A stretch of DNA of 64,000 nucleotides from Acidobacteriota bacterium (GTDB lineage: Bacteria; Acidobacteriota; JAAYUB01): the NCBI GenBank assembly GCA_040768985.1, contig JAXGLX010000002.1, forward strand, positions 4,485,871-4,549,870, given 5' to 3'. Below, piece by piece: positions 7,827 to 44,689 of this stretch. The translations under genes were made by a program, and so were the position numbers. The notes below the pieces were generated by a model. The model was not told the DNA's origin and ran no database searches. It was given only the letters and a program-made list of their open reading frames with translations. Within the stretch, counting starts at the first letter, position 1. Each line of letters opens with the position of its first letter.

Positions 7827-8289
7827 CAGTGCACACCTGATAACAAAATAACAAGCCAGGCCTGCCGCCTGATCCAATGTGCGTACAAGAATGACCGGAA
7901 CAGTCTGAGTCAGGTTAATTCAGCAATACCGCGATGTCAAGGGATTGTTGCCGGAATCCAGGTTCGTCGGCACGCCGGGCGATGAAACAGAACGGTGCCT
8001 CCGACCCGAATCGCCGCGCTCGGATGGCCGGAATCAGCGGAGTTGCGGCGTTAATGAACGAGTCACAGCCGGAGCATGGTCGGTTGATGATCAATCCCAT
8101 GCTGAAATCCTGTTCGACCCGCCGCGTGCCGTGGGTCGCCGGGAGGGACGCCTGAAGGTTGTGCGTGGCCCAGGTGCGCACGGTACGGGGGGGGCGACGG
8201 GCCCATCCATCACCACGCCGACTGTTTGGTTCCGGCTCCGCCGGGTTGGGATTACGAATCAGGATGACGCGCTCGAACCATCAACGACC

Positions 8290-8650
8290 AACTATCCGCG
8301 ATACTGTGAACCTGTGAATCCGTGAACATTCCAACGTTCGAACATTCAAACGGCTCCATTACGAACACGATCACGATTACGGATTACGAGCTGGAACCAT
8401 CAACTCTCAATGAGCGGAAACGAGCCTCGAGCCTCGAGTCTCTAGCCTCGATTACGATCACGATTACGAATTACGATTACGAATCTCGATTACGATTACG
8501 AATCACGAGCACGAGCCATCAACTCTCAATGAGCGGAAACGAGCCTCTAGCCTCGAGCCTCTAGCCTCGATTACGATCACGATTACGAATCTCGATTACG
8601 ATTACGAATCACGAGCACGAGCCATCAACGATCAACCATCAACGATCAAC
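8290..8650. repeat. Minisatellite array: two tandem ~105-120-bp units (approx 8397-8515 and 8516-8620) built from GATTACGA / CACGAGCACGAG / CCATCAAC / GAGCCTCTAGCCTCGAG submotifs, plus flanking partial units
   Basis: Direct reading: unit ccatcaactctcaatgagcggaaacgagcctc[g/t]agcctcgag...cgattacgatcacgattacgaat...cacgagcacgag occurs twice in tandem; second unit lacks one 13-nt tacgattacgaat subunit. Confidence 0.8.
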
Positions 8651-8684
8651 AGTTGGCGAGCTTTCCAACCCCGGGCGCAGGCAC

Positions 8685-22600: not shown

Positions 22601-25600
22601 GGCCGTGCGGGACAGTTCCACGGTGGAGACCCTCACGCCCATGCTGGTGGACACCGCCGTCGTGACCACTCCCGTGGATGCCTGCGGCGGCTCCACGGGC
22701 ACGCTCACGCTCCGCAACGCCGGACAGACCGCCTGCTACAACGGCCAGGTCACGGAGACGTTGCCGGCCGGCCTGCGGTACGTCTCCGGCACGACCCGCT
22801 GGCGGGTGAACGGCGGAGCATGGAACGGGCCCGACGCCGCCTACGACCCCAATCCCACCGTCTCTCCCCTGCGCTGGACCGCCACCGGGATCCCGGGATT
22901 GGCGGTTCTGAACCCGGGGGACACCCTGGATGTGGACTACGACTTGTCCGCGGACTGTCCCTTCACCGGCGGGCCGGTCACGGTCACCGTGTCGTACGAG
23001 GACCCCGGCGGGCAGGTCATCAACAATCCGGCGTCCACCTTCTCCGTGGCGTTCCGGGCGCCCGACCTCCGGGTGACGAAAACCCGGGCCGACCAACCGG
23101 TAAGCTGCGGGGAACTCATCGAGTGGACCATCGCGGTGGAGAACCAGAGCGGCTACACGCTTCCCATCGTCTGGGTCGAGGACACCCTGGATGCCGCCTT
23201 TACCTTCAACTCCTCGGTGGGAGACCCGCCCTACACGGCCGACGACGGCACCTTTGACGGCGTGAATCGGGTCAGCTGGGAACTGAGCTATCTTGGTCCC
23301 GGAGAAACCGCGATTCTGACCTTGCGGGCCTCATTGGATTCATCACCCTGCAGCCCGGACCTGGACAACACGGTCCGGGCCTGGTGGGGTTGCGGAACCG
23401 CCGACGGCTCGTCTGCAACCCAGCCAGGCGTGGATCCTCCCGATAACGGCCTTTGTCTGAACCCGACGCCGGTGAGCTACGTACGCACCGAGACCCGGCA
23501 GCCGAGCTTGACCGATTTCGCCGTCGGCCTCTCCCCCGCATCCATCGATGCCTGCAACGGCGGCACCGAAGTGACCTTCGCGTGCGCCAACACCGGCACC
23601 ACGGATGCTTTCCTCCTCGATGTCGAGATCTCCCTGCCCGCCGGGCTGACGTACAATCCCGGGACCGCCCGACTGTATGTCGGAGCCGACGGCACGGGCG
23701 CCACCACACCCATCGCCGATCCCGCCGTTTCGGGGAATCGGCTGATCTTTTTCGACACGGCCGACAAGGTCAACAACCTGGTCGATGTGCTGCAGGCCGC
23801 CGGTGGCAGCGACACGCTGGTGCTGAAATTCGAATTGCGATCGGATTGCTTTTTCGCGGCCGACCTGGGATACGCCGTGCGCTTCTACGACTGCTGCGGC
23901 GACACCCAGTACCAGCTCAGCGGCAGCCAGACAGTGCCGGCGCTCAACCCCGAGCTGACCGTCACCCAGGCGCCGGCATCCGCGCAGATCGCCTGCGGGG
24001 GACAGCAGGCCTGGACCATCACCGTCACCAACACGGGGGCGGGTAACGCCCAGGTGGTCCGAATCGAGGACACGCCCGGCGCCTGGATTACCGTGGACCC
24101 GGGCGCCTCCACCGCCGGGCTGACGGACCTGGGCTCCGGAAAGTGGGGCTGGGAGATCAACGATCTCGCCTCCGGCGGCGCGCAGGTCTTCACCCTGGCG
24201 GGAACCCTGAACCCGGCCGGGAACGGCTGCGATGCGTCCCGGCGCGAAAACAACGTCCGGGCTGTCTGGGGGTGTGGCACCGCCGGCGATGCCACCGACG
24301 GCGATCCCCTCACCCAAAGTTACGACTGCACCTCGGCGGTCTGGGCGACCGCCCCGACCGCCATTCTCCGGCTGCCCAACCTGGCCGTTGGCGCCGTCGC
24401 GCCTGCGGCCGCCTGCGCCGCCGACGGATCCTTCACCGGCAGCATCGCCGTCTCGATCGTCAACGCCGGCGACGGGAGCACCGGCGGCGGCTTCCTGATC
24501 CAGGCCGCCGACGGGCAGGGCTGGACCGGCACCTTCGCTTGCGCCAACATCCTCGCCGCCGGAGAAACTCTGAACCTCGACATCCCGGGCTCCTCCTGGT
24601 CGCCGGCGTGGGTGCCCGCCTGCACCCCCTGCGCCGCGGCCTCGCCCTACAGCTTCACCGTCGTGCTCGACCCGACGGGCGCCGTCTGCGAGTGCGACGA
24701 GAGCGACAATGCCCTGGCCGGGATCCTCTTCGACGTGCACCGCCCCGAACTGGCGGTGACGGACATCGATTTTGCGCTCGTCGCCTGTTCCGGCGACCAG
24801 GTCGCCGGCGCCATCCGCGTCCGCGTGGACAACACCGGGTGCGCAGACGCGGCCGGGGTCGTGGTTCGACTGACAGCCGACTGCGGGCTCACCTTCGGCG
24901 ACCAGATCACCAATGTGCCGGCGGGATCCCACACCCTGGCCGAGTTCCCGATCGTTGACGGTGCTTGGAACGACTGCGCCGACGAAACCTGCGCCTTCAC
25001 GGTCGCGGTGGATCCGGCGGGGCTGATCTGCGAGTGCGTGAGCGGCGGCGACACCCTCGGACCCGTGACCCACACGCTGTCCCTCCCGGACCTTGAGGTG
25101 ACCGACATCGAGCTGGGCGCCCTGAGTTGCGACAGCGGCGTCGTGTCCGGTTCGGCGTCCGTCACCGTCCGCAACGCGGGGAGCGGCGCGGCGGGCGCCT
25201 TCAGCGTCAGCCTGTCCACCCCGGCCGGCCTGGCGTTCACCGACCAGCCCGTCGCCGCGCTGGCTGCGGGCGAGAGCATCACCCTCGTATTCCCCGCTGC
25301 GGGGAGCCTGCCCGACTGCTGCCTCTGCGCGGCCGATTTCACCGCCGCGGCCGACGCCGCCCAGGCTGTCTGCGAGTGCCGGGGGGACAACAACGTCCGC
25401 ACCGTCCGGCCCGCGGCTGCGGACAAGATCTACTGGACGGACGAGAGTGCCGGCGCCATCCAGCGCGCCGAGGCCGACGGCGCCTCCGTGGAAGCGGTGC
25501 TCGCCGGGCTGGCCGGACCCCGCGCCGTGACCCTCGACGGGACCGGCGGCAAGATGTACTGGCTCGAGCCGGCCGGCGGCGTTCTCCGCCGGTCGAACCT

Positions 25601-28600
25601 GGACGGCACCGATCCCGAAACCCTGCTGGACAGCCTGTCGGCGCCGGTGGCCCTGGCTCTCGATCCGGCCGCCGGTCTGCTCTACTGGACCGACGCCGCG
25701 GGGGTGCACCGGGCTGGCCTCGACGGCGCCGATCCGGAGAATCTCATCCCCTCCGTGACGGATGCCGCCGGCATCGCCGTCGACTCCATCACCGGACGGC
25801 TCTATTTCGCCCAACCCGACGGCCGGATCCGCGGGGCGAACCTTGACGGCAACGACCTTCAGGAGGTGATCGCGGGCCTGGGCAGTCCCTTCGGCCTGGC
25901 GCTGGACATCCGGAACGGCATGCTCATATTCTCCGATCCGCTGACCGGCCTGATCCAGCGGATCTATCCGGACGGCACCGGCCTGACAACCGTGCTCGGC
26001 GGCCTGGAGTCCGCGGTGGGGTGCCTGGCCCTGAACGCGGAGGCCGAAACGGTCTACTACGAGACCCGGGGCGCCGCCATCCGCCGGGTGGGCCTGGACG
26101 GCGCGGGGGACGCGGCGATCGTCGACGGCCTGGACCAGTCGGGCGGTGTGGCCGTCCTGAAACTCAACACGGCGCCTACGGCCACGGAGATGAACCAGAC
26201 CCGCGACTATCTCCAGGGCGCCGCGACCGTGCCGCTCAACGATATCGTCGTGACCGATCCGGACTTCTGCGATACGGTCATGGCCGTCCTGATCCTGGCC
26301 GACCCGTCGTTGGGCGGTCTGTCCGACAGCAGCGGGCACGGCGAAACCTACGACGCCGCGGCGGGCCGGTGGACGGTCACCGGATCCGTGGCGGACGTCA
26401 ACGCCGCCCTGGCCGACGTCGCCTTCCTTCCGGTCCCCGACAATCCCGATGCCGAAACCGTCACCGTCCGGATCCGGGACGCTTCGGGGGCAGGCCCCGC
26501 CGATGGCGCCGTGGTCCTGGGCGTGATTCCCTATCCGGTCATTTCCGGGAGCGTCCGGCTCAACGGCGCCGGTGTCGCCGGCGTGGCGATGAACGGCCTG
26601 CCGGGCGGCATCGCCACTGACGCCTCCGGCGGCTACAGCGCCGTGTTGCCCCACGACTGGTCCGGGACAGTCACCCCGGACCTCGCCGGTTACCATTTCA
26701 CTCCCTCCAGCCGGACCTACGCCAACGTCGCCGTGGACCAGCCGGACCAGGACTATACCGCCACGGCCGCCACCGCCGCCGTCCTGGTTTCGGAACCGAA
26801 TCCATCGGTCTTCGGCGATCCGGTGACCCTGACGGTGACGGTCTCTTCCGCCGCCGGCCCGCCGCCCGGCACGGTGCGTTTTCTCGACGGCGCCGTCGAG
26901 ATCGGATCGGGGACACTGTCGGCCGGAGCCGCCGCTTTCTCCACCAGTCTGCTCTCCGGCGGGCTCCACGTCCTCACCGCCGCATACGACGGCAGTCCCG
27001 GCTACGAGACATCGGTTTCACCGCCCGTGAACCACCCGGTCAACCCGGCCGCCACGGCGACGAACCTCTCGTCGGCGCCCAATCCCTCGGTCTTCGGCGA
27101 CGCCGTGACCCTGACGGCCGTGGTCAGCTCCGGAGCGGGCACGCCGTCCGGGACAGTCACCTTCTTCGAGGGAGCCACGGTTCTCGGGAGCCAGGCGCTG
27201 GCGGGCGGTGTCGCCACTGTGGTTATTCCGTCGCCCCCTGGCGGCATTCACGGCTACAGCGCCGCCTATTCCGGCAACGCCGACCACCAGCCGTCCGCTT
27301 CGGCCGTCCTGAACCACTTGGTTCAACCCGCCCCCACCGCCACAACCCTGTCGTCGGCGCCCAATCCCTCGGTCTTCGGCGTCGCCGTGACCCTGACGGC
27401 GGTGGTGGTCTCTCCCGTCCCGGCGCCCGCCGGGAGTGTGGCCTTCCGCGACGGCGTCGTGGTGCTGGGAACGGTCGTCCTCTCCGGCGGCGGGACCGCG
27501 GTGTTCACCACGTCCGCGCTCACCGGGGGGACGCATTCGTTGACGGCCGAGTATCTCGGGACCGCGAACCACGCGGCCTCCACCTCCCCGGCCGTCCTGC
27601 AAACGGTTCGCCGGGCCGCGACCGCCACGACGGTCTCGTCGTCCGTCAACCCGTCCCGGTACGGACAGCCGGTGACGTTCACCGCCGCGGTGGCCGGCCC
27701 CGGGAGTCCGCCCACCGGCACCGTCGTTTTCCGGGCGGACGGCGCCGATCTCGGTCCGGCGGTGCCCCTGTCGGGCGGCATGGCCGTCCTGACCACTTCC
27801 GACCTGGCGGTGGGCGGCCACACGATCACCGCGCACTACCGGCCCATGGCCGACCCGAATCACCTGCCCAGCGAGGAGTCGCTGACCGGCGGGCAGAACG
27901 TCGTCAAGGCAGACACGACGACCGCCCTGACGACCAGCCGATCGTCGAGATATGGAGAAGCGGTCAACCTCACGGCCGTCGTGGCGGTGATCCCGCCCGG
28001 GAGCGGAATGCCCTCGGGAACGGTGACGTTTTTTGACGGAGTGACTACCCTGGGAACAGGTACACTGTCGGGCGGAACGGCGACCTTCACCACGACGGCC
28101 CTGGCGGTGGGGCCGCACCAGCTGGCGGCCCGGTTCGAGGGGAACGCCTCGCTGAATCCCAGCGTATCGCCGTCCACATTCCACCGGGTGTATATGGCCC
28201 TAACCGGCACGGTGCTGGCGGCCGCGCCGAATCCCTCGCACCGGGGCCAGACTGTGACGTTCACGGCGACGGTGACGGCGACACCTCCGGGAGCGGGAAC
28301 GCCCACCGGGACGGTGACGTTCCGGGACGACGGGGTCGCTCTCGGCAGTGCGCCGCTGTCGAACGGTACGGCGACGTGGGCTACCGCGCAGTTGACGATG
28401 GGCACGCATCCTATCACCGCGGGATATTCCGGTGACGAGAATTTTCGGTCGAGCGATTCGGAGATCCTGTCCCAGGCCGTGGAACGGGCGGAGACGGCCA
28501 CCACGCTCCATGTGTCACCGAGCCCCGTCTGTCCGGGCGGGACGGTGACCTTGACGGCCATGGTGTCCGTCGTGCCCGCTGGTGAAGGGACACCGACGGG

Positions 28601-30341
28601 GAGTGTCGAATTCCGGGACGGCCCGGAGCTGCTGGGAACGGTGGCGCTGGACGGCAATCTCGCGGTGTCGATCACCCTCGCTGCCCCGGAAGCGGGGACC
28701 CTGATCGTTTCCGCCGCTTACTCGGGTGACGGGGAGTTCATGGGAAGCAGTTCCGATCCGCTGGACCTGGAGGTGGCGGAGCCGCCGGCGGTGACCCTGG
28801 ATCCGATCCCGACCACGGTCGGATCGTGGGCGAGCGCCGCGCTCACGGTGGAATACTCGGGGACGGAACCCGTCTCGATCCAGTGGTACGAGGGAGCCAG
28901 CGGCGACACATCCCTGCCGGTGCCGGGAGCGACCGAGGCCACCCTCGCCACTCCGGCGGTGGACTGGGATACCGGCTACTGGGCCCGGTTGCAAAACGAC
29001 TGCGGCCAGACGGACAGCGCGGCGGCGGCCGTGACGATCCGGAACACCTATTACCTGGCGCACGTGGCCATGGACGACTTGTGGTGGACGTCACTGACGG
29101 CGGTCAACTGGAGCGAACACGATCACCCGGTGGTCTTGGAGGCGTTTGGCGCGGACGGCACTTTGCTGGAAACGCGCACGCTGGATCAACTGGGTTCCCG
29201 GTGCCAGTTGGCGCAGGACGCGTCGGAGTTGTTCTCCGCGGAAACGCTGGCGCAGGACGTCTGGGTGAGAACCACCACCGCTTCGGACCTGAAGGGCCTC
29301 GTGGCGTTCGGGACCACCGACGGGGAAACCCAGGCCAACCTGCCGTTCCTGAAGGCGGCGTCCTTCCACTCGGCCTTCCCCTACGTGGTAACGGGGGTGG
29401 CCGGCTGGTACACCGGACTGACCTTGGTGAACACCGACGAGACGCCGGCTTCGGTCCGGCTGACCGCTCGGGATGAAGACGGCGGCATCCTGTCGGAGCA
29501 GGCAGTCGCCATCCCGGGCTATGGGAAGTACGTCCGGTTTCTTGAGGAGATTTTCCCGGACGTCGCCGATCCGACGCGGCTCCGAAACGTCCGGGTGCTT
29601 TCGGACCGGCGCCTGGTGGGATTCGAACTCTTCTGGAACCTCGACCTGGCGGGCCTCGCCGGATTGCCCGCTGTGTCCATGGACGAATTGCCGCCGGACG
29701 GCGGCACATACGATCACTTCTTCAACGAGATCCCGGATTCGGGTAGTTACTATACCGGCATCACCTTCGTGAATCTGGATCAGGCGCCGGCTGCCATCGC
29801 CGCCGCCGCCTTCGATGCGGCCGGATCGCAGTTGGGGACGGAATATCTTGAACTGCCTCCCGGCAGCCAGTTGACCCGGGAGCTGCAGGCCGTGTTTCCG
29901 CCCCCGGACTATGCCGCGGCCGCGTACATCCGCTGGGACGCCCCGCAGCGCGTGACGGGTTTCGAGCTGGTGCTGACCCGGGATGGAGAATTCCTGTTCG
30001 ACGGCCTGGTGGGAGGGCTGGAACCCTGGCACCGGCTGGTGTTCCCGGCGGCCTCGCCCTCGGGCGGTTCAGTGCGGCTGCGGCTGACGAACCAGGAGAA
30101 CCTCCACCTGAATCTGGAGATCACGGCATACGACGCGGCGGGGGTGGCGCTGGCCACCCGCCCGGCAGACCTCGACGCGTACCAGTTGCTGGACCTGAAC
30201 CTGGGAGCCGACCTGGCGCCGGTGGCGGCGGAGATCGCCTGGGTGGAAGTGGAAGGCGACGGCCTGATGGTGGGCGACGCGTTCATCATCTCGGCCGACG
30301 GAAAGCGCCTGGTCATCTATGCCGGCTTTCCGGCGTGGTGA
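19665..30341 (+). CDS. Giant (3558 aa) secreted/cell-surface multi-domain protein: DUF11-like repeats, CARDB-like domains, YWTD-type six-bladed beta-propeller, seven Ig-like repeats, C-terminal repeated beta-sandwich-like modules
   Basis: Single uninterrupted track ORF; signal-peptide-like N-terminus; YWTD-like blades (KIYWTD, KMYWLE, LLYWTD, RLYFAQ, MLIFSD, TVYYET); repeated PNPSVFG...VTLTA Ig-like units; CECxxxDN motifs ending CARDB-like units. Confidence 0.85.
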   Translation: MFRSSLTRHGSFFTGQERTDRRQRPAGRVGRCGFAVGIVFIALARLGAQDLEIAGDPSINRCEAKVYTLTLQNDSGNPLTRLVASADLSLLTGFSYVPGSTSIWVNAEPVFCTADPAAGGGSLIWDLDALCGPTVGLDDGDTLSVTFQLQTACAAVSGSLGSRFNYDIAGTPSEILAARAIQVLPGRLSIRKTPSVISQEVGQNVTWTIAVENTGLGTVRNVVVTDGLGAGLEYVASSPAGLNAGPTTRWDAAQVPGLALMVPGDIITLDVTVKVIACTGLDNSADARWGCNPATDCFDTAVDGGTATAVVQRIPRSPSLSLTPPDIGFSYCEDSGPQALSVENIGDGTARAVELWIDFSPLAVAASSVPYNAAGYFELPDIAAGGRVDVTFTLAYAGWCGGADLAGTLIWQPRYADDCGGAYFAPVEYSEILPATGTPGLSVDVTGAPDVISIGDAVTYAVTSNYSGTLNCGAGSVGAVTVTDTVPAGFTVVDAGGGTWVPGAGGTGGAVTWAYLPPATLATTLTLQAPLRDECETWCFTTFANSVEASVTDCCGCEHTAAASQSSAIVCEELVMVTRTATPATAERCSNILYTNMYAFDGSAGALLNELVFTERADHQQQYVPGSLTVTFDGGDVTGCVLVTDTTPGGTLTLDFSGCAAAAVGAKALVITYQLTITEATAAACGGTEFYAWSALQQGSTGSQCLVDGTIYEAVAVAVEAPAMSLRLSGLSTVVDRCRTETVTLTLAQTSMAANPRDVRLVLSGLNYYVVNPSAAICAGDVSPISCTPALVGDDFVWYFGDGFTGAGQSCVLQFQVQKRCSGGGSLEATAFFDDRCHDDGVYDDTCSVSGGLTPAAIRGGDLLVEVSPEVYQAASSSVEWKVFVTNRGAGTAANVWVDHFLGAGLDFSSAVVDDMTGVTVTADMDHTGGAVNGATVAIDALAPGERREISFHAVLIDTFNLTLDVAAAWGCVGVDCQSAVRDSSTVETLTPMLVDTAVVTTPVDACGGSTGTLTLRNAGQTACYNGQVTETLPAGLRYVSGTTRWRVNGGAWNGPDAAYDPNPTVSPLRWTATGIPGLAVLNPGDTLDVDYDLSADCPFTGGPVTVTVSYEDPGGQVINNPASTFSVAFRAPDLRVTKTRADQPVSCGELIEWTIAVENQSGYTLPIVWVEDTLDAAFTFNSSVGDPPYTADDGTFDGVNRVSWELSYLGPGETAILTLRASLDSSPCSPDLDNTVRAWWGCGTADGSSATQPGVDPPDNGLCLNPTPVSYVRTETRQPSLTDFAVGLSPASIDACNGGTEVTFACANTGTTDAFLLDVEISLPAGLTYNPGTARLYVGADGTGATTPIADPAVSGNRLIFFDTADKVNNLVDVLQAAGGSDTLVLKFELRSDCFFAADLGYAVRFYDCCGDTQYQLSGSQTVPALNPELTVTQAPASAQIACGGQQAWTITVTNTGAGNAQVVRIEDTPGAWITVDPGASTAGLTDLGSGKWGWEINDLASGGAQVFTLAGTLNPAGNGCDASRRENNVRAVWGCGTAGDATDGDPLTQSYDCTSAVWATAPTAILRLPNLAVGAVAPAAACAADGSFTGSIAVSIVNAGDGSTGGGFLIQAADGQGWTGTFACANILAAGETLNLDIPGSSWSPAWVPACTPCAAASPYSFTVVLDPTGAVCECDESDNALAGILFDVHRPELAVTDIDFALVACSGDQVAGAIRVRVDNTGCADAAGVVVRLTADCGLTFGDQITNVPAGSHTLAEFPIVDGAWNDCADETCAFTVAVDPAGLICECVSGGDTLGPVTHTLSLPDLEVTDIELGALSCDSGVVSGSASVTVRNAGSGAAGAFSVSLSTPAGLAFTDQPVAALAAGESITLVFPAAGSLPDCCLCAADFTAAADAAQAVCECRGDNNVRTVRPAAADKIYWTDESAGAIQRAEADGASVEAVLAGLAGPRAVTLDGTGGKMYWLEPAGGVLRRSNLDGTDPETLLDSLSAPVALALDPAAGLLYWTDAAGVHRAGLDGADPENLIPSVTDAAGIAVDSITGRLYFAQPDGRIRGANLDGNDLQEVIAGLGSPFGLALDIRNGMLIFSDPLTGLIQRIYPDGTGLTTVLGGLESAVGCLALNAEAETVYYETRGAAIRRVGLDGAGDAAIVDGLDQSGGVAVLKLNTAPTATEMNQTRDYLQGAATVPLNDIVVTDPDFCDTVMAVLILADPSLGGLSDSSGHGETYDAAAGRWTVTGSVADVNAALADVAFLPVPDNPDAETVTVRIRDASGAGPADGAVVLGVIPYPVISGSVRLNGAGVAGVAMNGLPGGIATDASGGYSAVLPHDWSGTVTPDLAGYHFTPSSRTYANVAVDQPDQDYTATAATAAVLVSEPNPSVFGDPVTLTVTVSSAAGPPPGTVRFLDGAVEIGSGTLSAGAAAFSTSLLSGGLHVLTAAYDGSPGYETSVSPPVNHPVNPAATATNLSSAPNPSVFGDAVTLTAVVSSGAGTPSGTVTFFEGATVLGSQALAGGVATVVIPSPPGGIHGYSAAYSGNADHQPSASAVLNHLVQPAPTATTLSSAPNPSVFGVAVTLTAVVVSPVPAPAGSVAFRDGVVVLGTVVLSGGGTAVFTTSALTGGTHSLTAEYLGTANHAASTSPAVLQTVRRAATATTVSSSVNPSRYGQPVTFTAAVAGPGSPPTGTVVFRADGADLGPAVPLSGGMAVLTTSDLAVGGHTITAHYRPMADPNHLPSEESLTGGQNVVKADTTTALTTSRSSRYGEAVNLTAVVAVIPPGSGMPSGTVTFFDGVTTLGTGTLSGGTATFTTTALAVGPHQLAARFEGNASLNPSVSPSTFHRVYMALTGTVLAAAPNPSHRGQTVTFTATVTATPPGAGTPTGTVTFRDDGVALGSAPLSNGTATWATAQLTMGTHPITAGYSGDENFRSSDSEILSQAVERAETATTLHVSPSPVCPGGTVTLTAMVSVVPAGEGTPTGSVEFRDGPELLGTVALDGNLAVSITLAAPEAGTLIVSAAYSGDGEFMGSSSDPLDLEVAEPPAVTLDPIPTTVGSWASAALTVEYSGTEPVSIQWYEGASGDTSLPVPGATEATLATPAVDWDTGYWARLQNDCGQTDSAAAAVTIRNTYYLAHVAMDDLWWTSLTAVNWSEHDHPVVLEAFGADGTLLETRTLDQLGSRCQLAQDASELFSAETLAQDVWVRTTTASDLKGLVAFGTTDGETQANLPFLKAASFHSAFPYVVTGVAGWYTGLTLVNTDETPASVRLTARDEDGGILSEQAVAIPGYGKYVRFLEEIFPDVADPTRLRNVRVLSDRRLVGFELFWNLDLAGLAGLPAVSMDELPPDGGTYDHFFNEIPDSGSYYTGITFVNLDQAPAAIAAAAFDAAGSQLGTEYLELPPGSQLTRELQAVFPPPDYAAAAYIRWDAPQRVTGFELVLTRDGEFLFDGLVGGLEPWHRLVFPAASPSGGSVRLRLTNQENLHLNLEITAYDAAGVALATRPADLDAYQLLDLNLGADLAPVAAEIAWVEVEGDGLMVGDAFIISADGKRLVIYAGFPAW

Positions 30342-32190: not shown

Positions 32191-33108
32191 TTAAGGGCCG
32201 AGCACCAGGCCCAGACGGGCGGCGTCGTATGCCGGCGTCGCGCCGGAACGCGATGCCACGTAGGCAGCCAGCCGGCAGGCGTCGGCCAGGACCGCCGGCC
32301 AGGGGGGCGTCGCCCGGGCGGTCAGGGCGGCGGCGAGCACGGCGGTAAAGGCGTCGCCGGCTCCCACCGTGTCACGGACGGTCACCGGCTCGGGCCGGCA
32401 GCGGTGCCAGCGTCCGTGATCCAGGAGGATCGCGCCGTCGGCGCCCAGGGTGACGCAGATCCGACGGCATCCGGTGCGCCGTTGCAGCGCCGCGACGGCC
32501 GCTTCCAGGGGGGTGCCGGCAGCGGCGCCCGACAGCACCAATAGCTCCTGCCGGTTGAGCTTGAGCAGGTCCGCCCGGCGGGCGAGCCGCAGGGCCCGGG
32601 CCCGGTCATCATGGGGGGGGCGCAGGTTGATGTCGCAGATGCGGATGGCCGCGGTTGCTTTCAGTAGCCGGGCCAGCGTTCGCCGGTTCGGGGCCTGGCG
32701 GAGGGCCAGGCTGCCAAAGACGACGGCGTGCGGATTCTCAGCGGCGATCGCCGCTGCACCGCTGGGGTTGGGAATCCGATCCCAGGCGGCGGGTTCGGCG
32801 ATGGTGAAGCGGGGGTTGCCGTCCGCATCCAGCGAGACGCGCACTGTGCCGGTGGGCAGGTCCCGCCGGATCGCCACGGCCCGCGTGTCCACGCCGAGGC
32901 GGTTCAGGGTGGCCAGCGCTTCGGCGCCCGGGCCGTCGTCGCCCACCGCCGACACCGGCAAGGCCCGGCGGCCTAGACGGCGCAGGTGTACGGCCACGTT
33001 CAGGGGTGCCCCGCCCATGAACCGGCCGGTGGGCAGGTGGTCCCAGAGGATCTCGCCGAAGCAGAGGATCGGTCCCGTCGGCGGACGCTCGCCCGCGGCC
33101 CGGTTCAT
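32191..33108 (-). CDS. PfkB-family carbohydrate kinase (fructokinase-like)
   Basis: In-frame part of track ORF 32191-33795 from MNRAAG; GAGDAF-type PfkB motif (DTVGAGDAFTA); ATGA overlap with the upstream gene stop. Confidence 0.8.
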   Translation of the reverse strand: MNRAAGERPPTGPILCFGEILWDHLPTGRFMGGAPLNVAVHLRRLGRRALPVSAVGDDGPGAEALATLNRLGVDTRAVAIRRDLPTGTVRVSLDADGNPRFTIAEPAAWDRIPNPSGAAAIAAENPHAVVFGSLALRQAPNRRTLARLLKATAAIRICDINLRPPHDDRARALRLARRADLLKLNRQELLVLSGAAAGTPLEAAVAALQRRTGCRRICVTLGADGAILLDHGRWHRCRPEPVTVRDTVGAGDAFTAVLAAALTARATPPWPAVLADACRLAAYVASRSGATPAYDAARLGLVLGP

Positions 33109-35174
33109 GATCCGGCCACCTGGAGTTCGTGGCAGGTCCGGATGAACTCCGCTGCCGACCAGGCCTGGTAACGTTTGCCCATGGGCCGTCCCGTCACTCC
33201 GTGGGCCCATTCGTTGAATTCCCACTCCCCGGCGATGCCGGTCCGGTTGAGCTCGGCCAGTCGGACCAGCTCCTGGCGAGCGAGTTCGGGGAGGCCGATC
33301 CGGTGGATGAACCGGACCCACTGGGCGCCGATGAACGGCCACACGCCGCCGTTGTGATAGTGGTGGGGCAGATTCATCAGGTTGACGGTGTAATACCGGC
33401 GCCAGTCCGGGTCGCCGCCCGTCACCACCGGGTAGAGGTTGGCCACCGGGAAGGGCTGGTTGACGCCCACTCCCCACATGAAGCGGAACGCCTGCCGCGC
33501 CTTCTCCAGATCCAGCACCCCGTACAGGAAGGCCATCACGTTGCCCAGGACGTCGCACCGCCAGCTGTAATCGAACGGAGTGACCTGGGCGATCAGGTAG
33601 CGGGCATCGCCCAGCGCGAACTGCTGGTCGGCGAAACTGGGCCCCTCGCCGGGAGCGGGCTGGCTGGTGCTGGGCCAGAAGTGAAGCAGGATTTCCTTCT
33701 TGATCACCTGGGACCAGCGCAAGTAGTCGCCGGCCCGGGCATCTTCCCCCAGCAGCTCCAGCATCCGGCCGAAACAGATGTTGGCGCGGTACCACAGGAT
33801 CTCATCATAGAGCACGTTGTAGCTCCGGCCGAACAGGTCGGTCCAGTCACCGGCTTCGGGGATTTCAAGAAGGGCGTCGTTGTTGCCGTCGTGGGCGCTG
33901 AGCCAGTCCATGGCCCGCTGCAGGCGGCCGGCGTGCCGGCGCAGGAACTCCAGGTCATGGGTCGCCTTGGTGTACTCGTAGCAGGCGATGACAAGCCACA
34001 GGCCGCTGTCGATGGAGCAGATGCTGCCGATCCCCGAGTAATCGGGCCGGCCTGAATCGATGGCCACGTTGGTGGGGATCTGCCCGTTGGGCGACAGGTT
34101 GCCCAGCAGGGTCTCCAGGGTGGCGAGCTGGCACCGACGGATGGACTCGTCGCCGGCGAGCGGCAGCGATCCGCACACGGCGATGGAACCATCCCGGGCC
34201 CAGACGCTCCGGTAATTGATGTCGGTGCCCGAGGGATCGTTGTCGGGCAGCGAGCACGCCGAAAAGCCAACCGAGGTCACGTTCCTGCGCAACGCCTCCA
34301 CCGCCCGCCCGTAGGCCAATCGGATGAAGGCCTCCTCGTTGCTGACCGGTCGTTCTGTCCGGCCGTGATCGGGCAGAAAGGGAACCTGGCCCGCGTCGGT
34401 CTCGGTCTCCGGTAGTTTCGCACCGGCGGGGAACACCTGGTAATGGCTCAATCCCTCCACCACGCCCCGGGCGCAGGGCGCCGCCGCGTGGTAAAAGGGC
34501 CGGTGCTTGGTGGCCTGGTACAGTTCCGGCTGGGCGTTGCCCACCACGATCCCCTTGACCTGATCGATGAGGAACATGGCCAGGTCGTTGCCGCTGTCAC
34601 CGGCCACCAGGACATGATCGGCTCGGATCTTCAAGTGGCGGATCAGCCAGCGCAGGGCATTGCCCTTGTTCGCCCAACGGGGCAGAATGTCCAGGTGGAG
34701 GGAACTGGAATACACCACCACCACGTCCAGCCCGGCTTTGGTCAGCCGCTTTTCGACCAGGGCCAGTTGCTGGGGCTCGGCGTTTTCCAAAAACCAGCTG
34801 GATTTGAACCGGTTCTGAAAATGGTTGGGCTGGCGGGTGATGGGCAGGTCCACCTGGCGGATGATCCCGTCCACCCGGGCCAGGTTCCATCCCTCTTCCA
34901 GGATTTCTGAAAACTCCTTGATGAGGCGGCCCTGGCGGCGGTCGAAGATGCCCGTGCCGACGCCGGCGATGATGAAATCGGCCTCCGGCAGCCCCTCCTG
35001 CCGACAGACGGCTGCGGTGTCATCCAAAAGCCGGCCCGTGTTGTAGCAGAGCAGGGGCCGCCGGCCGGAATCGAGCGCCTCCCATTGCATGCGGAAGAAA
35101 TGGGTGGCGGGCGGATCACCCAACAGGGTGCCGTCCAGATCGGACGCAAACAGCTTGATCGTGGCGGTGCGCAT
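33105..35174 (-). CDS. Fusion protein: N-terminal HAD-type sucrose-phosphate-phosphatase-like domain, C-terminal (alpha/alpha)6-barrel glycoside hydrolase-like domain (GH100 neutral-invertase-like)
   Basis: Track ORF 689 aa; HAD motifs DLDGTL and GDSGND; C-terminal glycosidase-like blocks. Confidence 0.7.
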   Translation of the reverse strand: MRTATIKLFASDLDGTLLGDPPATHFFRMQWEALDSGRRPLLCYNTGRLLDDTAAVCRQEGLPEADFIIAGVGTGIFDRRQGRLIKEFSEILEEGWNLARVDGIIRQVDLPITRQPNHFQNRFKSSWFLENAEPQQLALVEKRLTKAGLDVVVVYSSSLHLDILPRWANKGNALRWLIRHLKIRADHVLVAGDSGNDLAMFLIDQVKGIVVGNAQPELYQATKHRPFYHAAAPCARGVVEGLSHYQVFPAGAKLPETETDAGQVPFLPDHGRTERPVSNEEAFIRLAYGRAVEALRRNVTSVGFSACSLPDNDPSGTDINYRSVWARDGSIAVCGSLPLAGDESIRRCQLATLETLLGNLSPNGQIPTNVAIDSGRPDYSGIGSICSIDSGLWLVIACYEYTKATHDLEFLRRHAGRLQRAMDWLSAHDGNNDALLEIPEAGDWTDLFGRSYNVLYDEILWYRANICFGRMLELLGEDARAGDYLRWSQVIKKEILLHFWPSTSQPAPGEGPSFADQQFALGDARYLIAQVTPFDYSWRCDVLGNVMAFLYGVLDLEKARQAFRFMWGVGVNQPFPVANLYPVVTGGDPDWRRYYTVNLMNLPHHYHNGGVWPFIGAQWVRFIHRIGLPELARQELVRLAELNRTGIAGEWEFNEWAHGVTGRPMGKRYQAWSAAEFIRTCHELQVAGS

Positions 35175-35183
35175 GGAACGGCC

Positions 35184-36506
35184 CTAGCCTTCGTGGACTA
35201 TTATGGCGGGCGATTCGCGATCCTCCACGGTGCGGATCAGTTGCTGGGCGATCCCGGTCCAGGTGAAGTAGCTGCGCACTCGGTGGGCACCCTCCTGGGC
35301 CAGCCGCCCGGCCAGGTGGCGGTAGCGCAGCGTCTTGACCATGGTGATGCCGAGGTCCTCCGGGTCGAACGGATCGGCGCAGAGCGCGTGGACGCCGTAG
35401 GACATGGTCCGGATCAGGCCGCCGTGCACCGTGATGACAGTGGGGGTGCCGCACGCCATGGCCTCGATGGCGGTCATGCCGAAGGGTTCGTATCGGCTGG
35501 GCAGCACGAACACGTCAGCCGCACGGTAGAAATCGGCCATCTCCTCGTCGGGCAGGGAGCCACGGAACCGGATCCGGTCCGCCAGGCCGGAGCGGTCGGC
35601 CTGTTCCCTGAGTTCCGCAAGCAGCGGGTCGCCTTCCAGGTTCGGCGACTCAGTTCCCACGGCCAGCACCAGGATGGCATCGGGTACGCGCGGGGCGACC
35701 ACCCGGAAGGCGTCCAGCAGCAGGTCGAATCCCTTGTTGCGGGCCAGCCGCCCCACGGAGGCGATGACCCGGTGACCGGTGTAGCCGAGCTGGTCGCGCA
35801 ACAGGTCACGGGACGAGTCGCTGAGCGGGAAAAAGCGATTGTCGTCGTAGCCGGGCGGGATCACCTGGATCTTGTCTGCTGCTGTGCCGTAATCCTTACG
35901 GATGATGTCCAACTGGGGCGGCGAGGTGGCCACCACCAGGTCGCAGTCCTTGAAAATCCGGCTTTCGCTCGCGATGCGCTGCCGGAAATTGTAGGTGGCC
36001 TCGAATGCCGCCTCCTCCTCGGGATGGTCCTGCTGCATCTGCTGTTTCTTCCAGGAGCCAAGGGAATGGGGGGTGAACAGGTGCATGGCCCCCACGGCGT
36101 CGGCGATGTACTGGCCGGCCAGGCCGGCGTCCCAGTAGTGGCTGTTGATGAACTGGTAGTTCAGCCGGTCCCGGGAAATCCAGCGCAGGGCCCGTTCGGC
36201 CCACTCCGGGATGTGCTCGTGCAGGTACTCCTTGGGGATGAAGTTCGGCCCGCCGCACGGGACGCGCAGGATGCGCACGCCCGGTCCGGCGGATTCCTCG
36301 GCGGGCTGCTCCTCGAAGCGGCGGGTCCAGATGTCCACCTGGTAGCTGAGCTGAGCCAGCTTGCGGGACAGTTCCAGCACATACACCACCTGCCCGCCGG
36401 TGTCGGGAGCGCCGAGGGGCGGCTCGGCTGACACGTAGCCATGGGTGGAAATCATGGCGATGCGCCGCTTGACGCGGGGCCGCCGACGTTGCGGGAGGGG
36501 ATTCAT
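35184..36506 (-). CDS. Sucrose-phosphate synthase-like GT4 glycosyltransferase
   Basis: Track ORF 440 aa; N-terminal SPS-type block MISTHGY...DTGGQVVYVLEL; GT4 C-terminal blocks. Confidence 0.8.
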   Translation of the reverse strand: MNPLPQRRRPRVKRRIAMISTHGYVSAEPPLGAPDTGGQVVYVLELSRKLAQLSYQVDIWTRRFEEQPAEESAGPGVRILRVPCGGPNFIPKEYLHEHIPEWAERALRWISRDRLNYQFINSHYWDAGLAGQYIADAVGAMHLFTPHSLGSWKKQQMQQDHPEEEAAFEATYNFRQRIASESRIFKDCDLVVATSPPQLDIIRKDYGTAADKIQVIPPGYDDNRFFPLSDSSRDLLRDQLGYTGHRVIASVGRLARNKGFDLLLDAFRVVAPRVPDAILVLAVGTESPNLEGDPLLAELREQADRSGLADRIRFRGSLPDEEMADFYRAADVFVLPSRYEPFGMTAIEAMACGTPTVITVHGGLIRTMSYGVHALCADPFDPEDLGITMVKTLRYRHLAGRLAQEGAHRVRSYFTWTGIAQQLIRTVEDRESPAIIVHEG

Positions 36507-36748
36507 GATCGGTTCTCCAAAAAATGGTTTTCTACGACGTCCAAACCGCTCCTGGCGGAGGCCACGCGATGCACAGAATTGAGGAACTTGTCGTGCCGGC
36601 GACGACGGCTGGCGTGTGGTGGATCGAGAGCAGACCGCGACGGGTTTCGCATGAGCCAGAGCGTGATTTTCCGGACACCTCAGGTCGCAGTGAACTCATT
36701 GTAGCATCTGGAGTTGAAATCATCAACCCCAAAACGGGCGGCCGCGCG

Positions 36749-40541: not shown

Positions 40542-42239
40542 TCAGGAGCCAAAAAACCGCAGAAACTTCCGCTCGCCGTCGTCGGTGCCGATGAGGATCA
40601 GTTCGGCGCCCGCCGCGAGGGGCGTCGCCGGATCGGGGTTGATGGCCAGGCCGCCGTCGGCCCGGATCGCAATGACGGAACAGTCCGTGGCCGCGCGGAT
40701 CCCCGATTGGGACAGGTTGCGGCCCACCAGTGACGCCGGAACCGCCAGGCTGAAGATGTTCAATCCTTCGGCCAGCATCCAGGTGTCCTCGTTGCGCAGG
40801 AAGTTGAAGATGGCGTCGGCGCCCAGCGCGGCGTACGACATGACGAAGTCGGCCCCGGCGCGGTGCAGCGTCGAGACGTTGCGATTGAGATTGGCGCGGC
40901 TGAGGATCTGCATGTCCGGCCGCAGGCTGCGCAGGTACTTGGTCAGGTAGATGTTGACGGCGTCGTCGTGGGTGGTGATGAGGGCGGCGGGGGTCTTGTC
41001 GATCCAGGCCCGCTGCAGCGTGCGGATATCGGCGGCGTCGCCGATGACGTGGTGCTCCTGGTCCTCCACCTGTCGCGGGTTTTTCTCGACGACCCGGTAG
41101 GGGCTGCCCCGCTCCTTGAACCGCGCGGCGATCGTGTCGCCCACCCGGCCGCTGCCGACGATCAGGATCGGATCCTGGGTCAGCTCGCGGAGATGGTAGC
41201 GTGAGAACTCCGCGTCGAACGCCGCCAGCCCCGCTTCGGCGCCGGCCAGCACGAGGGCGCTGGTGCGGCCGATGCGGCGGTCGGCGCGCGGAATCTCGAA
41301 CCGTCCCCGCTCCCAGATCCCCACGATGCTGAGTCCGAATCGCTCGCGCAGCCGGCTCTCGGCCAGCGTCTGGCCCACCAGCGGGGTGCCCATGGCCGCG
41401 AACTCGGCGATCACCAGCTCGTCGAAGCGGCTGATGATGTTGGCGCGGCAGTCGCCGCCCACGGTCCAGGCGGCCAGGGAGCGCCCCAGGATGTCGTAGA
41501 TCTGGATCACCTTCGTGCTGCCGGCCATCTCCAGGATGTCCACGGAGTGGGGGGAATCGGCGGTGGTGAGGACGGGAACCTCCTCGCTCAGCTCCCGGAC
41601 GGTGAAGGCGACGTTGGTGTTGATCTCGTCGCGGCTGGTGGCGACGACGAGCGCCGCGCGGTCGGCGCGCAGCCGGCGATATGTCTCCGGGTCATCGATA
41701 GCCCCCACGGCCACCCGGATGCCCACGTCGTACAGCTCCAGCGCATGCTTGAAGTCGTCCACCACGAGGACGTAGTCGCAGCGGTGGGCCTGCAGCTTCT
41801 CGATCAGGGCGGCCGTAACCGGATCGTAGCTCGTGATGATGACGTGACCCCGCGTCCCGGGCGGCAGCTCGCGGGGAGCGCGGTTGCGGGCCTCGGCCTC
41901 GATCCAGGGGCCGTAAAAGAACTTGATGAACATGAAGGGGAGCAGGGTCAGCAGGAAGATCATCCCGGACAGCAGCACGACGATGGAGAACGCTTTGCCC
42001 AGGTCCGTCGCGAAGGTGATGTCGCCGAAGCCCAGCGTGGACATGACCGTGAGGGTCCAGTACACCCCCGTGATCCAGGAGTGGTCCTGCCCTTCCGCGG
42101 CCATGATGTAATGGAAGATTACGCTGTAGACGGCCACCATGCCCGAAAGGACAAGGAGAAAATTGAGCAGCTGACGGAGATTGCGCCGGGTGCTGGCCCG
42201 CTGGAAAAAATAGCTGACGACGGCGGGATTGAATTTCAT
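40542..42239 (-). CDS. Potassium channel protein with two RCK/TrkA-like domains
   Basis: Track ORF 565 aa; selectivity filter TLGFGD; two Rossmann-like blocks downstream. Confidence 0.85.
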   Translation of the reverse strand: MKFNPAVVSYFFQRASTRRNLRQLLNFLLVLSGMVAVYSVIFHYIMAAEGQDHSWITGVYWTLTVMSTLGFGDITFATDLGKAFSIVVLLSGMIFLLTLLPFMFIKFFYGPWIEAEARNRAPRELPPGTRGHVIITSYDPVTAALIEKLQAHRCDYVLVVDDFKHALELYDVGIRVAVGAIDDPETYRRLRADRAALVVATSRDEINTNVAFTVRELSEEVPVLTTADSPHSVDILEMAGSTKVIQIYDILGRSLAAWTVGGDCRANIISRFDELVIAEFAAMGTPLVGQTLAESRLRERFGLSIVGIWERGRFEIPRADRRIGRTSALVLAGAEAGLAAFDAEFSRYHLRELTQDPILIVGSGRVGDTIAARFKERGSPYRVVEKNPRQVEDQEHHVIGDAADIRTLQRAWIDKTPAALITTHDDAVNIYLTKYLRSLRPDMQILSRANLNRNVSTLHRAGADFVMSYAALGADAIFNFLRNEDTWMLAEGLNIFSLAVPASLVGRNLSQSGIRAATDCSVIAIRADGGLAINPDPATPLAAGAELILIGTDDGERKFLRFFGS

Positions 42240-42944: not shown

Positions 42945-43763
42945 ATGCATCCAGCGCTTGCCTTCATGAGCCGGCCGGGGCGGATTCTGGCCATGATCCA
43001 CGTCGGGGCCCTGCCCGGCACGCCGCGGAGCCGCGGGTCGATGGCGGAGGTCGTGGAGCGGGCCGCGGCCGAGGCGGCCGTCTACCGCGACGCGGGCGTG
43101 GACGCGCTGCTCGTGGAGAACATGCACGACGTCCCCTACCTGAACCGCGCCGTGGGCCCCGAGATCACCGCCGCCATGACGGTGGCGGCCCAGGCGGCGG
43201 CCCGCGCCGGCGGGCTGCCCACGGGCGTCCAGATCCTGGCCGGGGCGAACCGGGAGGCGCTGGCGGCGGCGCTGGCCGCGGGGTGCGCGTTCGTCCGGGC
43301 CGAAGGATTCGTGTTCGGCCACATCGCCGACGAGGGCTACATCGACGCTTGCGCCGGCGAGCTGCTCCGCTACCGCCGCGCCATCGGCGCCGAAGCGGTG
43401 GCCGTCCTGGCGGACGTGAAGAAGAAGCACAGCTCCCACGCCGTGACCGCCGACGTCGACATCGTGGAGACCGCCCGCGCGGCGGAGTTCTTCGCCGCCG
43501 ACGGCGTCGTCGTCACCGGGGTGGCCACCGCCCGGGAGACGGATCCGGAGGAACTCGCCACCGTGCGCGGCGCGGTGGGCGTCCCCGTCCTGGTTGGTTC
43601 GGGCGTGACGGAGGCCAACGTGGACCGGTACCTTTCGCACGCCCACGGACTCATCGTCGGGTCGCACTTCAAGGTGGACGGCTGCTGGGACCGGCCGGTG
43701 GACGCCGACCGGGTTCACCGCTTCATGGACCGGGTGCGCGCGCTGCGGGAGCGCGGCGCATGA
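42945..43763 (+). CDS. BtpA/SgcQ-family TIM-barrel protein
   Basis: Track ORF 272 aa; N-terminal block ILAMIHVGALPGTP. Confidence 0.75.
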   Translation: MHPALAFMSRPGRILAMIHVGALPGTPRSRGSMAEVVERAAAEAAVYRDAGVDALLVENMHDVPYLNRAVGPEITAAMTVAAQAAARAGGLPTGVQILAGANREALAAALAAGCAFVRAEGFVFGHIADEGYIDACAGELLRYRRAIGAEAVAVLADVKKKHSSHAVTADVDIVETARAAEFFAADGVVVTGVATARETDPEELATVRGAVGVPVLVGSGVTEANVDRYLSHAHGLIVGSHFKVDGCWDRPVDADRVHRFMDRVRALRERGA

Positions 43764-44689
43764 GGATCGTCGTCGTCGGCAGCTCCATCCTGGACGTGGT
43801 CGCCCGGCCCACCTCGCGGGTGGCGCGGGACACGTCCAACGAGGGCGTGGTCACACTGGGGGCGGGCGGCGCGGGGCGCAACGTGGCGGAAAACCTGGCG
43901 CGCCTGGGCTGCCGGGTGACCCTGGTGACGGACCTGGGCGACGATTTCGCCGGGCGCTTCCTGCTGGACAACATCCGGGAGCTGGGCATCGAGGCGCGGC
44001 TGTCCGCGCGGTCACGCACCGGTGTCTACCTGGCTCTCCTCAACGGCGACGGCTCCCTCGACCGGGGTTTCTGCGGCACCGGCACGGAGGCCATCTCGCC
44101 GTTCGCTATGCTGAACGCGCTGCCCGACTTGCAGGACTTTCATGGCGCGGTCATCGATGCCAACCTGTCGGAAACCGCCGTCGCGGCGCTGGCGGAGCGG
44201 TGCCGCCGCCTGAAGGTGCCCTACGCGGTGGAGTCGGTGGCCCACGAGCGGGCCCGGCGGGCGCTGCCGGCCATCCCGGGCTGCGTCCTCATCAAGCCGG
44301 ACCGCGCCGAGGCGCGCACGCTCACCGGCTTGCCCTGCGACACCCCGGCCGAGGCGGCCGCGTGCGCCCGGCGGCTGCGCGCCATGGGTGCCGGCACGGC
44401 CATCGTCAGCCTGGGCGCGGACGGCTTCCACATGGAGCACCCGGAGTTCTCCAGCCACATCCCCGCGCTCCCCGCCGCGGTGGCCAACGTCACCGGCGCG
44501 GGGGACGCGCTGTTCGCCGTCGCCTTCGCGGCGATCCTGAAGGGACTGCCGCCGCGGCTGGCGGCGGAGGCGGGACGCCGCGCCGCCGCGCTCACCGTGA
44601 CCAGCCTCGCCGCCGTGAGCCCCGCCATCACGCCGGAGCTGCTGAACCCGGCCGGATTGAATCCGACGACGGACGGAGGGCGCCCGTGA
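43760..44689 (+). CDS. psuK: PfkB-family kinase, probably pseudouridine kinase
   Basis: In-frame tail of track ORF 43283-44689 from MRIVVVG; ATGA overlap with the BtpA stop; assignment rests on adjacency to the psuG-like gene. Confidence 0.7.
   Translation: MRIVVVGSSILDVVARPTSRVARDTSNEGVVTLGAGGAGRNVAENLARLGCRVTLVTDLGDDFAGRFLLDNIRELGIEARLSARSRTGVYLALLNGDGSLDRGFCGTGTEAISPFAMLNALPDLQDFHGAVIDANLSETAVAALAERCRRLKVPYAVESVAHERARRALPAIPGCVLIKPDRAEARTLTGLPCDTPAEAAACARRLRAMGAGTAIVSLGADGFHMEHPEFSSHIPALPAAVANVTGAGDALFAVAFAAILKGLPPRLAAEAGRRAAALTVTSLAAVSPAITPELLNPAGLNPTTDGGRP

Follow-up and report, generated by a model that had tools for sequence, protein, structure and literature searches.

A sucrose-phosphatase-like domain fused to a GH100-like glycosidase in a putative bacterial module for sucrose turnover

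Introduction

Why would a phosphatase predicted to release a disaccharide be joined, on one polypeptide, to a glycosidase predicted to cleave it? The question is raised by three consecutive, co-directional genes on the minus strand (positions 32191-36506) of a 64,000-nucleotide (nt) stretch of an Acidobacteriota genome (assembly GCA_040768985.1, contig JAXGLX010000002.1, positions 4,485,871 to 4,549,870; the whole stretch is hereafter called the window). In order, these genes encode a glycosyltransferase of family 4 (GT4), a fusion of a HAD-IIB domain of the sucrose-6F-phosphate-phosphatase type to a domain resembling glycoside hydrolase family 100 (GH100), and a PfkB-family sugar kinase (Table 1). 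On balance, the operon probably serves as a compact unit for sucrose synthesis and turnover, in which the last biosynthetic and the first catabolic step would reside on a single polypeptide. The parts of such a module are familiar, namely sucrose-phosphate synthase (SPS), sucrose-phosphate phosphatase (SPP), a GH100 invertase and fructokinase, while the architecture of the fusion is real, widespread and uncharacterised, and the window holds one ordinary member of it. Cyanobacteria and plants are the organisms with which sucrose metabolism, and above all the GH100 invertases, is generally associated, and the loci described here would place a compact version of the whole pathway in many other phyla.

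Results and discussion

Gene organization and distribution of the fusion

The three open reading frames (ORFs) are real genes, far beyond chance expectation, with full-length homologues and a neighbourhood conserved across phyla. A sequence-only reading of the locus had described the genes as co-directional with overlapping stop and start codons; the common direction holds, as does the overlap between the fusion and the PfkB gene, which have 4 nt in common (ATGA), while the GT4 and fusion genes do not overlap and lie 9 nt apart (TAG, 9 nt, ATG). The ORF delimited mechanically for the PfkB kinase (32191-33795) is longer than the real gene, which starts at an ATG at 33108 (protein start MNRAAGE), the choice of the gene callers on four public contigs with an identical locus. 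Exact matches to the window occur in the metagenome-assembled genome (MAG) GCA_036769055.1 and in JGI metagenome contigs.

More than 2000 database proteins match the fusion, the best 120 of which are all full-length (676-712 aa, 57-87% identical). In contigs from GTDB with one genome per species, including both MAGs and isolates, the fusion is encoded at 280 loci labelled as belonging to at least seven bacterial phyla, with host labels of Chloroflexota, Bacteroidota, Rhodothermales, Verrucomicrobiota, SAR324, Sumerlaeota, Actinomycetota and Lentisphaerae, and with Lewinella cohaerens DSM 23179 (Bacteroidota) and Cerasicoccus frondis NBRC 105381 (Verrucomicrobiota) among the isolate carriers. 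The joining of a phosphatase to a hydrolase of its likely product, singled out as unusual from the sequence, is thus unusual in concept and not rare in occurrence (280 reference species genomes). Homologues currently bear names such as "HAD-IIB family hydrolase", "glycogen debranching protein" and "sucrose-6F-phosphate phosphohydrolase", and a specific annotation could now replace the first two of these in hundreds of genomes. Identity between genomes amounts to 63-73% for the GH domain and 45-56% for the HAD domain across at least seven labelled phyla, and from this conservation both domains are under purifying selection.

Gene linkage was counted in the 61 loci whose flanks extend 1.5 kb or more to both sides of the fusion. 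In 47 of the 61 an SPS-like GT4 gene is the immediate same-strand neighbour, either upstream as in the window (30 loci) or downstream (17); it lies within 2.5 kb in a further 10 and is absent in four, while a PfkB gene directly follows the fusion in 20. Based on these neighbour counts, the GT4 and the fusion form the core unit and the PfkB kinase is a frequent accessory; no other conserved neighbours were found among the neighbourhoods compared. At one locus (L057, 4054-5772, minus strand) a 572-aa ORF, a multi-pass membrane transporter by the look of its sequence, lies on the opposite strand between the GT4 and the fusion.

The same components are also found in other arrangements. A contig from JGI 3300043331, which carries P0134, has an unfused module, in which a stand-alone GH protein, 52% identical to the C-terminal domain of the fusion, is convergent with genes for a PfkB kinase, a GT4 and a stand-alone S6PP protein. 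Further, a 730-aa protein (P0268) has the GH100-like domain fused to a C-terminal PfkB kinase that is 32% identical to the kinase of the window, and it keeps the equivalents of D389, D446, E655, W612 and W672 (numbering of the window's fusion, as below). In the manner of Rosetta-stone proteins, the existence of both the unfused cluster and the GH-PfkB fusion ties the GH domain to the preceding and the following step of the pathway. There are also divergent S6PP-GH fusions, with GH domains 31-37% identical, of which two (P0155 and P0246) lack equivalents of the GH acid and tryptophans and one (P0135) lacks those of the HAD residues D14 and K170, in a quick MAFFT alignment that is uncertain at these positions; judged from these sequences, some divergent lineages may keep only one active domain.

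The phosphatase domain

The N-terminal part of the fusion matches PF05116 (S6PP) over residues 7-246 with 212 bits, against a Pfam cut-off of 20.3, and its best match in the PDB is the sucrose-phosphatase of Synechocystis (1s2o), both by sequence (E 6e-27) and by fold. In an alignment of 43 family members with Synechocystis SPP, D12, D14, T16, T46, G47, K170, D193 and D197 of the fusion correspond to D9, D11, T13, T41, G42, K163, D186 and D190, with the catalytic residues conserved in 42-43 of the 43 members and T46 alternating with serine. The four catalytic aspartates (D12, D14, D193 and D197) are thereby in register with those of the cyanobacterial enzyme, in agreement with the SPP-like HAD domain proposed from the sequence.

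Contacts to the substrate allow a finer distinction. Sucrose-6F-phosphate (S6P) is contacted in Synechocystis SPP by D11, T41, G42, Q107, K116, K163 and N189 (bioRxiv 10.64898/2026.09.11.751015), and all seven residues are kept in 42-43 of the 43 sequences of the fusion family, including the contacts from the cap, Q115 (equivalent to Q107; 42/43) and K124 (equivalent to K116; 43/43), and the asparagine N196 (equivalent to N189; 42/43). Among SPP-like proteins and generic HAD-IIB enzymes the residues at Q107 and K116 are variable (bioRxiv 10.64898/2026.09.11.751015), and the conservation of their equivalents therefore argues that the HAD domain is a genuine S6P phosphatase.

In some loci from the Verrucomicrobiota and Lentisphaerae an additional stand-alone SPP-like gene with intact HAD motifs adjoins the fusion (Table 1).

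The GH100-like domain and the linker

In the C-terminal part of the fusion the strongest Pfam match is Glyco_hydro_100 (PF12899; 60 bits, cut-off 23.6), followed by GDE_C (39 bits) and MGH1-like (30 bits), and the closest solved structures by sequence are Anabaena InvA and Arabidopsis CINV1. About 1000 related clusters (at 50% identity) were recovered from 1.84 billion cluster representatives; they form a large bacterial clade that can now be placed beside GH100. Many of these relatives stand alone, with lengths of 400-440 aa and 30-40% identity to the domain, and Pfam calls them GH100 as well. A profile built from the domain and 61 relatives, stand-alone proteins included (62 sequences), gave whole-domain matches to InvB, InvA and AtCINV1 (114-133 bits; E 1e-37 to 8e-32), with other families at or below 55 bits. 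An AlphaFold2 model of the domain, based on the alignment of these relatives, reached a mean predicted local distance difference test score (pLDDT) of 94.8 and a predicted template-modelling score (pTM) of 0.94, and the top 28 Foldseek matches to this model were all GH100 (TM 0.70-0.80), the next group being the glucosylglycerate and mannosylglycerate hydrolases of GH63 (TM ~0.6). The sequence-only reading had predicted an (alpha/alpha)6 glycosidase and had named GH100, GH63 and GH133 as families to be separated; by profile, model and structural comparison the domain is GH100-like.

In InvA, Asp188 is the catalytic acid and Glu414 the base (PMC6995568), and Trp376 and Trp434 form a platform in the same enzyme (bioRxiv 10.64898/2026.07.01.735942). 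These four residues align with D446, E655, W612 and W672 of the fusion, which are invariant in all 43 fusion members. Across the wider clade of 62 sequences the invariant residues include R327, D328, D389, D446, W612 and E655, which may represent the -1 subsite, where an alpha-glucosidase would bind glucose, with D389, by its place in the alignment, as a candidate for the 'fixer' aspartate of clan GH-G. Aglycone specificity aside, the domain belongs to a divergent GH100-like clade and is very probably active as an inverting alpha-glucosidase.

The linker between the domains (residues ~247-285) has no consensus in the alignment of 43 sequences, and pLDDT falls below 50 at residues 257-274. Because of this disordered linker and a pTM of 0.56, the arrangement of the domains in the full-length AlphaFold2 model is unreliable.

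At one locus (L088, 1967-6541) a stand-alone GH relative, 37% identical to the domain, adjoins an ATP-binding cassette (ABC) sugar importer consisting of SBP_bac_1 and two permeases, a setting that suggests that the importer-linked stand-alone relatives are catabolic members of the clade.

The glycosyltransferase and the kinase

The first gene encodes a protein with GT4 domains (Glycos_transf_1 and Glyco_transf_4), along with a match to the first 37 residues of GT-B_Sucrose_synth (31.9 bits, cut-off 23). This N-terminal match stems from the stretch that carries PDTGGQVVY, which includes the motif DTGGQVVY typical of SPS and sucrose synthase and recurs in 57 of the 64 GT4 genes neighbouring the fusion in other genomes. 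Amongst solved structures the nearest is the SPS of Thermosynechococcus (TeSPS, 6kih; E 9e-50), ahead of MshA (3c48; 4e-45) and the SPS of Halothermothrix (H.) orenii (2r60; 4e-42), and the SPS-like GT4 synthase recognized from the sequence is supported by these domains, signature and structural matches. TeSPS has GGQ, and its Gln51 hydrogen-bonds the fructose moiety (PMC7264703); at the equivalent position in the alignment with the GT4, MshA has GGMNVY, not GGQ. The equivalents of TeSPS His158 (TPHSLG), Arg178 and Glu331 (EPFG) are kept and Arg105 is replaced by lysine, though the catalytic and phosphate-site residues are largely common to SPS and MshA and do not discriminate between them. 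An identity as MshA was considered and rejected as unlikely, based on an acceptor motif of GGQ and not GGM and on the linkage to an SPP-type phosphatase. The genomes with this linkage come, moreover, from phyla that are not known to make mycothiol.

The third gene matches PF00294 (143 bits), and its best PDB match by a wide interval is a fructokinase (2qhp; E 1e-39, runner-up 3e-18), in line with the PfkB fructokinase that had been suggested for it.

Proposed function and alternatives

From the domain identities, the conservation of residues and the linkage of the genes, we infer the activities of the module, the identity of its sugar and its regulation as follows. The GT4 would condense a nucleoside diphosphate (NDP)-glucose with fructose-6-phosphate to form S6P, which the HAD-IIB domain of the fusion would dephosphorylate to sucrose; the flexibly tethered GH100-like domain would act as an inverting alpha-glucosidase that hydrolyses sucrose to glucose and fructose, and the PfkB kinase would convert the fructose back to fructose-6-phosphate. 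Sucrose might serve as a compatible solute or as a short-term carbon buffer, with a single co-expressed unit in charge of both its production and its removal. This reading is strengthened by the retention of the seven S6P contacts, the DTGGQVVY motif of the GT4 and the fructokinase as nearest structure of the kinase. If run simultaneously, the four steps would net NDP-glucose + ATP to free glucose, and the opposing domains are therefore expected to be regulated; ionic strength, metabolites or oligomeric state, for example, would have to separate the two activities and prevent a futile cycle. A bolder version, in which the fusion would be a true bifunctional switch, with phosphatase and invertase reciprocally controlled in one, possibly oligomeric, protein that sets the level of cellular sucrose in heterotrophs from many phyla, is a speculative and doubtful extension.

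Several observations weigh against a sucrose module. Scores fall short of every NCBIfam equivalog cut-off considered: the HAD domain scores 150.3 bits with the SPP equivalog TIGR01485 (cut-off 183.65), the GT4 scores 190 bits with the SPS N-domain model TIGR02472 (cut-off 576) and 201 bits with the MshA model TIGR03449 (cut-off 462.5), such that by score alone it fits MshA about as well as SPS, and the top model of the kinase, fructokinase NF006957, gives 93.7 bits (cut-off 450). The identity of the GH domain to characterised GH100 enzymes is only 20-22%. The canonical SPP serine (Ser44 in Synechocystis, Ser54 in AtSPP2) is leucine in 36 and methionine in seven of the 43 fusion sequences, and S54A abolishes the activity of Arabidopsis SPP2 (PMC5113954). 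The additional stand-alone SPP-like genes could mean that, where they occur, phosphatase activity does not depend mainly on the fused HAD domain. Both domains, if active at once, would burn NDP-glucose and ATP, and no regulatory element or domain for the module was found at the locus.

That the phosphatase is inactive was not concluded from the change at Ser44. Related loci contain stand-alone SPP-like paralogues in which this serine is likewise missing, with TGRT or TGRR in its place, and the other catalytic residues are kept; the departure is for this reason treated as a caveat only.

A module of the same architecture might handle another sugar, as the sequence-only reading had allowed: the GT4 and HAD domain would make a different glycosyl-ketose or a glucoside, for example a mannosylfructose-type or other sucrose-like compatible solute, to be hydrolysed by the GH domain. 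Homologues of SPS and SPP act in Agrobacterium as mannosylfructose-phosphate synthase and mannosylfructose-phosphate phosphatase, and the missed equivalog cut-offs, the leucine or methionine for Ser44 and the position of the GH domain in a large clade at low identity to proven invertases all leave room for it. Further, some stand-alone GH relatives lie beside ABC sugar importers, so that the clade is probably not uniform in its aglycone specificity. Set against this are the Q107 and K116 equivalents, cap contacts to S6P that are kept almost without exception, the residues invariant in the wider clade, which read as the -1 glucose site of an alpha-glucosidase, and the fructokinase-like partner kinase, and a sugar other than sucrose is considered unlikely.

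It is quite unlikely that only one domain of the fusion is catalytic, with the HAD domain acting as a sensor of sucrose or S6P that regulates the invertase or, conversely, the GH domain acting as an oligomerisation scaffold for the phosphatase. By analogy, the sensor variant recalls SPS proteins, many of which carry an SPP-like domain that is inactive, and the scaffold variant recalls the role of the S6PPc domain in plant SPP, and GH100 enzymes crystallise as multimers, with 6 to 12 chains per PDB entry. A silent HAD domain would also fit the loss of Ser44, given the effect of S54A on AtSPP2 (PMC5113954), and the extra SPP-like genes at L070, L073, L081, L071 and L082, and the apparent loss of residues in P0135 (HAD) and in P0155 and P0246 (GH), where the alignment is uncertain, could point to either variant. 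However, all catalytic residues of both domains are kept in 42-43 of the 43 members, which would be unexpected for a degenerate domain, and the lack of the serine is shared by the stand-alone SPP-like paralogues.

A constitutive cycle, in which sucrose would be a transient and fructose-6-phosphate a recycled carrier on a route to free glucose or to energy dissipation, is very improbable: with all four proposed activities on it would convert NDP-glucose + ATP to glucose + NDP + ADP + Pi, and one operon with a translationally coupled junction and a fusion that enforces a 1:1 ratio of the domains would suit it, but it offers no evident benefit, no conserved glucose-specific partner (kinase, exporter or dehydrogenase) adjoins the module in the neighbourhoods compared, and the PfkB gene is missing from the immediate neighbourhood in about two-thirds of the loci.

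Relation to known systems

The sucrose module proposed here consists of the same three enzyme types as the pathway of cyanobacteria and plants (SPS; SPP, with slr0953 and structure 1s2o; and the GH100 invertases InvA, InvB and AtCINV1), with the catalytic and S6P-binding residues of SPP, the fold and the Asp/Glu pair of GH100, and the SPS signature all kept. It differs in uniting SPP and invertase, two proteins in cyanobacteria and plants, on a single polypeptide, in the distance of the sequences (~31% identity to SPP and 20-22% to GH100), in the leucine or methionine that replaces Ser44, and in its hosts, which appear to be heterotrophs from many phyla and not oxygenic phototrophs. Consecutive enzymes of the sucrose pathway are fused in the bimodular SPS-SPP proteins of cyanobacteria and plants (bioRxiv 10.64898/2026.09.11.751015). 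Those proteins combine two biosynthetic steps and their SPP module is often inactive, whereas here SPP is joined to an enzyme that would destroy its product and SPS is encoded by a separate gene.

Outside the phototrophs, Methylotuvimicrobium alcaliphilum 20Z has a set of sucrose enzymes consisting of Sps, Spp, FruK and Ams (PMC8062543). This set resembles the present module in combining genes for sucrose synthesis with a fructokinase and a sucrose-consuming enzyme, though the consumer is an amylosucrase (GH13) that feeds glucan and not a GH100-type hydrolase, and nothing is fused. The methanotroph genes are said, in work by But et al., to be arranged in an operon in the order sps-spp-fruK-ams.

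A full-text search, whose coverage excluded most subscription journals, found no description of an SPP-GH100 fusion. Opposing activities on one polypeptide are known from bifunctional enzymes such as PFK-2/FBPase-2 and the RelA/SpoT-type synthetase-hydrolases, where one domain produces and another destroys a metabolite; the likeness is one of analogy only, as there is no homology to the fusion. If both domains of the fusion are active, the question becomes how the cell avoids a futile cycle, and the answer could reveal a new control of a compatible solute. Were the switch true, it would be a counterpart of PFK-2/FBPase-2 for a sugar osmolyte, and GH100-type sucrose hydrolysis and cycling would be widespread outside the photosynthetic lineage.

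Other features of the locus and the window

Table 1. Coordinates of the features discussed. Positions refer to the window, except for those preceded by a locus number, which refer to that locus.
Feature	Position	Strand	Basis
GT4 glycosyltransferase, sucrose-phosphate-synthase-like, 440 aa	35184-36506	-	Pfam, PDB matches, motifs
HAD-IIB/GH100-like fusion, 689 aa	33105-35174	-	Pfam, PDB, alignment; stop codon 33105-33107
Fusion, N-terminal HAD-IIB domain, sucrose-6F-phosphate-phosphatase type, residues 7-246	34437-35156	-	PF05116
Fusion, variable inter-domain linker, residues ~247-285	34320-34436	-	Alignment without consensus, low pLDDT
Fusion, C-terminal (alpha/alpha)6 GH100-like alpha-glucosidase domain (predicted), residues ~286-689	33108-34319	-	
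PfkB-family sugar kinase, fructokinase-like, 305 aa	32191-33108	-	PF00294; start overlaps fusion stop
Sigma-70-like promoter candidate	36698-36726	-	TTGATG, 17 nt, TACAAT, extended-10 TG; consensus match only
Additional stand-alone SPP-like gene	L070 3890-4786		
Additional stand-alone SPP-like gene	L073 5941-6774		
Additional stand-alone SPP-like gene	L081 3092-3874		
Additional stand-alone SPP-like gene	L071 8094-8879		
Additional stand-alone SPP-like gene	L082 ~8100-8894		

The promoter candidate is located in the 242-nt gap 5' of the GT4 gene, where a scan for promoter patterns found two sites, compared to 0.3 expected from shuffled sequences. The leader of ~190 nt contains no known RNA element at the Rfam gathering threshold.

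Further upstream on the same strand, 4 kb from the module, a potassium channel is encoded (40542-42239, minus strand) that contains two RCK (TrkA_N/TrkA_C) units. The channel and the module may share an osmotic theme, with the linkage seen on near-identical contigs only. A second PfkB-family kinase is encoded at 43283-44689 (plus strand), where the PfkB domain spans residues 161-447.

On the other side of the module, a molybdenum cofactor (Moco) riboswitch (RF01055, 63.8 bits, full length; 17410-17533, minus strand) lies directly upstream of an ORF (15793-17601, minus strand) whose product falls among the NAD-type aldehyde dehydrogenases (PF00171, 315 bits, match from residue 122) and does not obviously look like a molybdoenzyme or an enzyme of Moco biosynthesis. 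Convergent to the region of the module is an ORF of 3558 aa (19665-30341, plus strand) with CLIPPER/DUF11, CARDB, LDL-receptor YWTD and Big_3_5 repeats, which is probably a giant surface protein.

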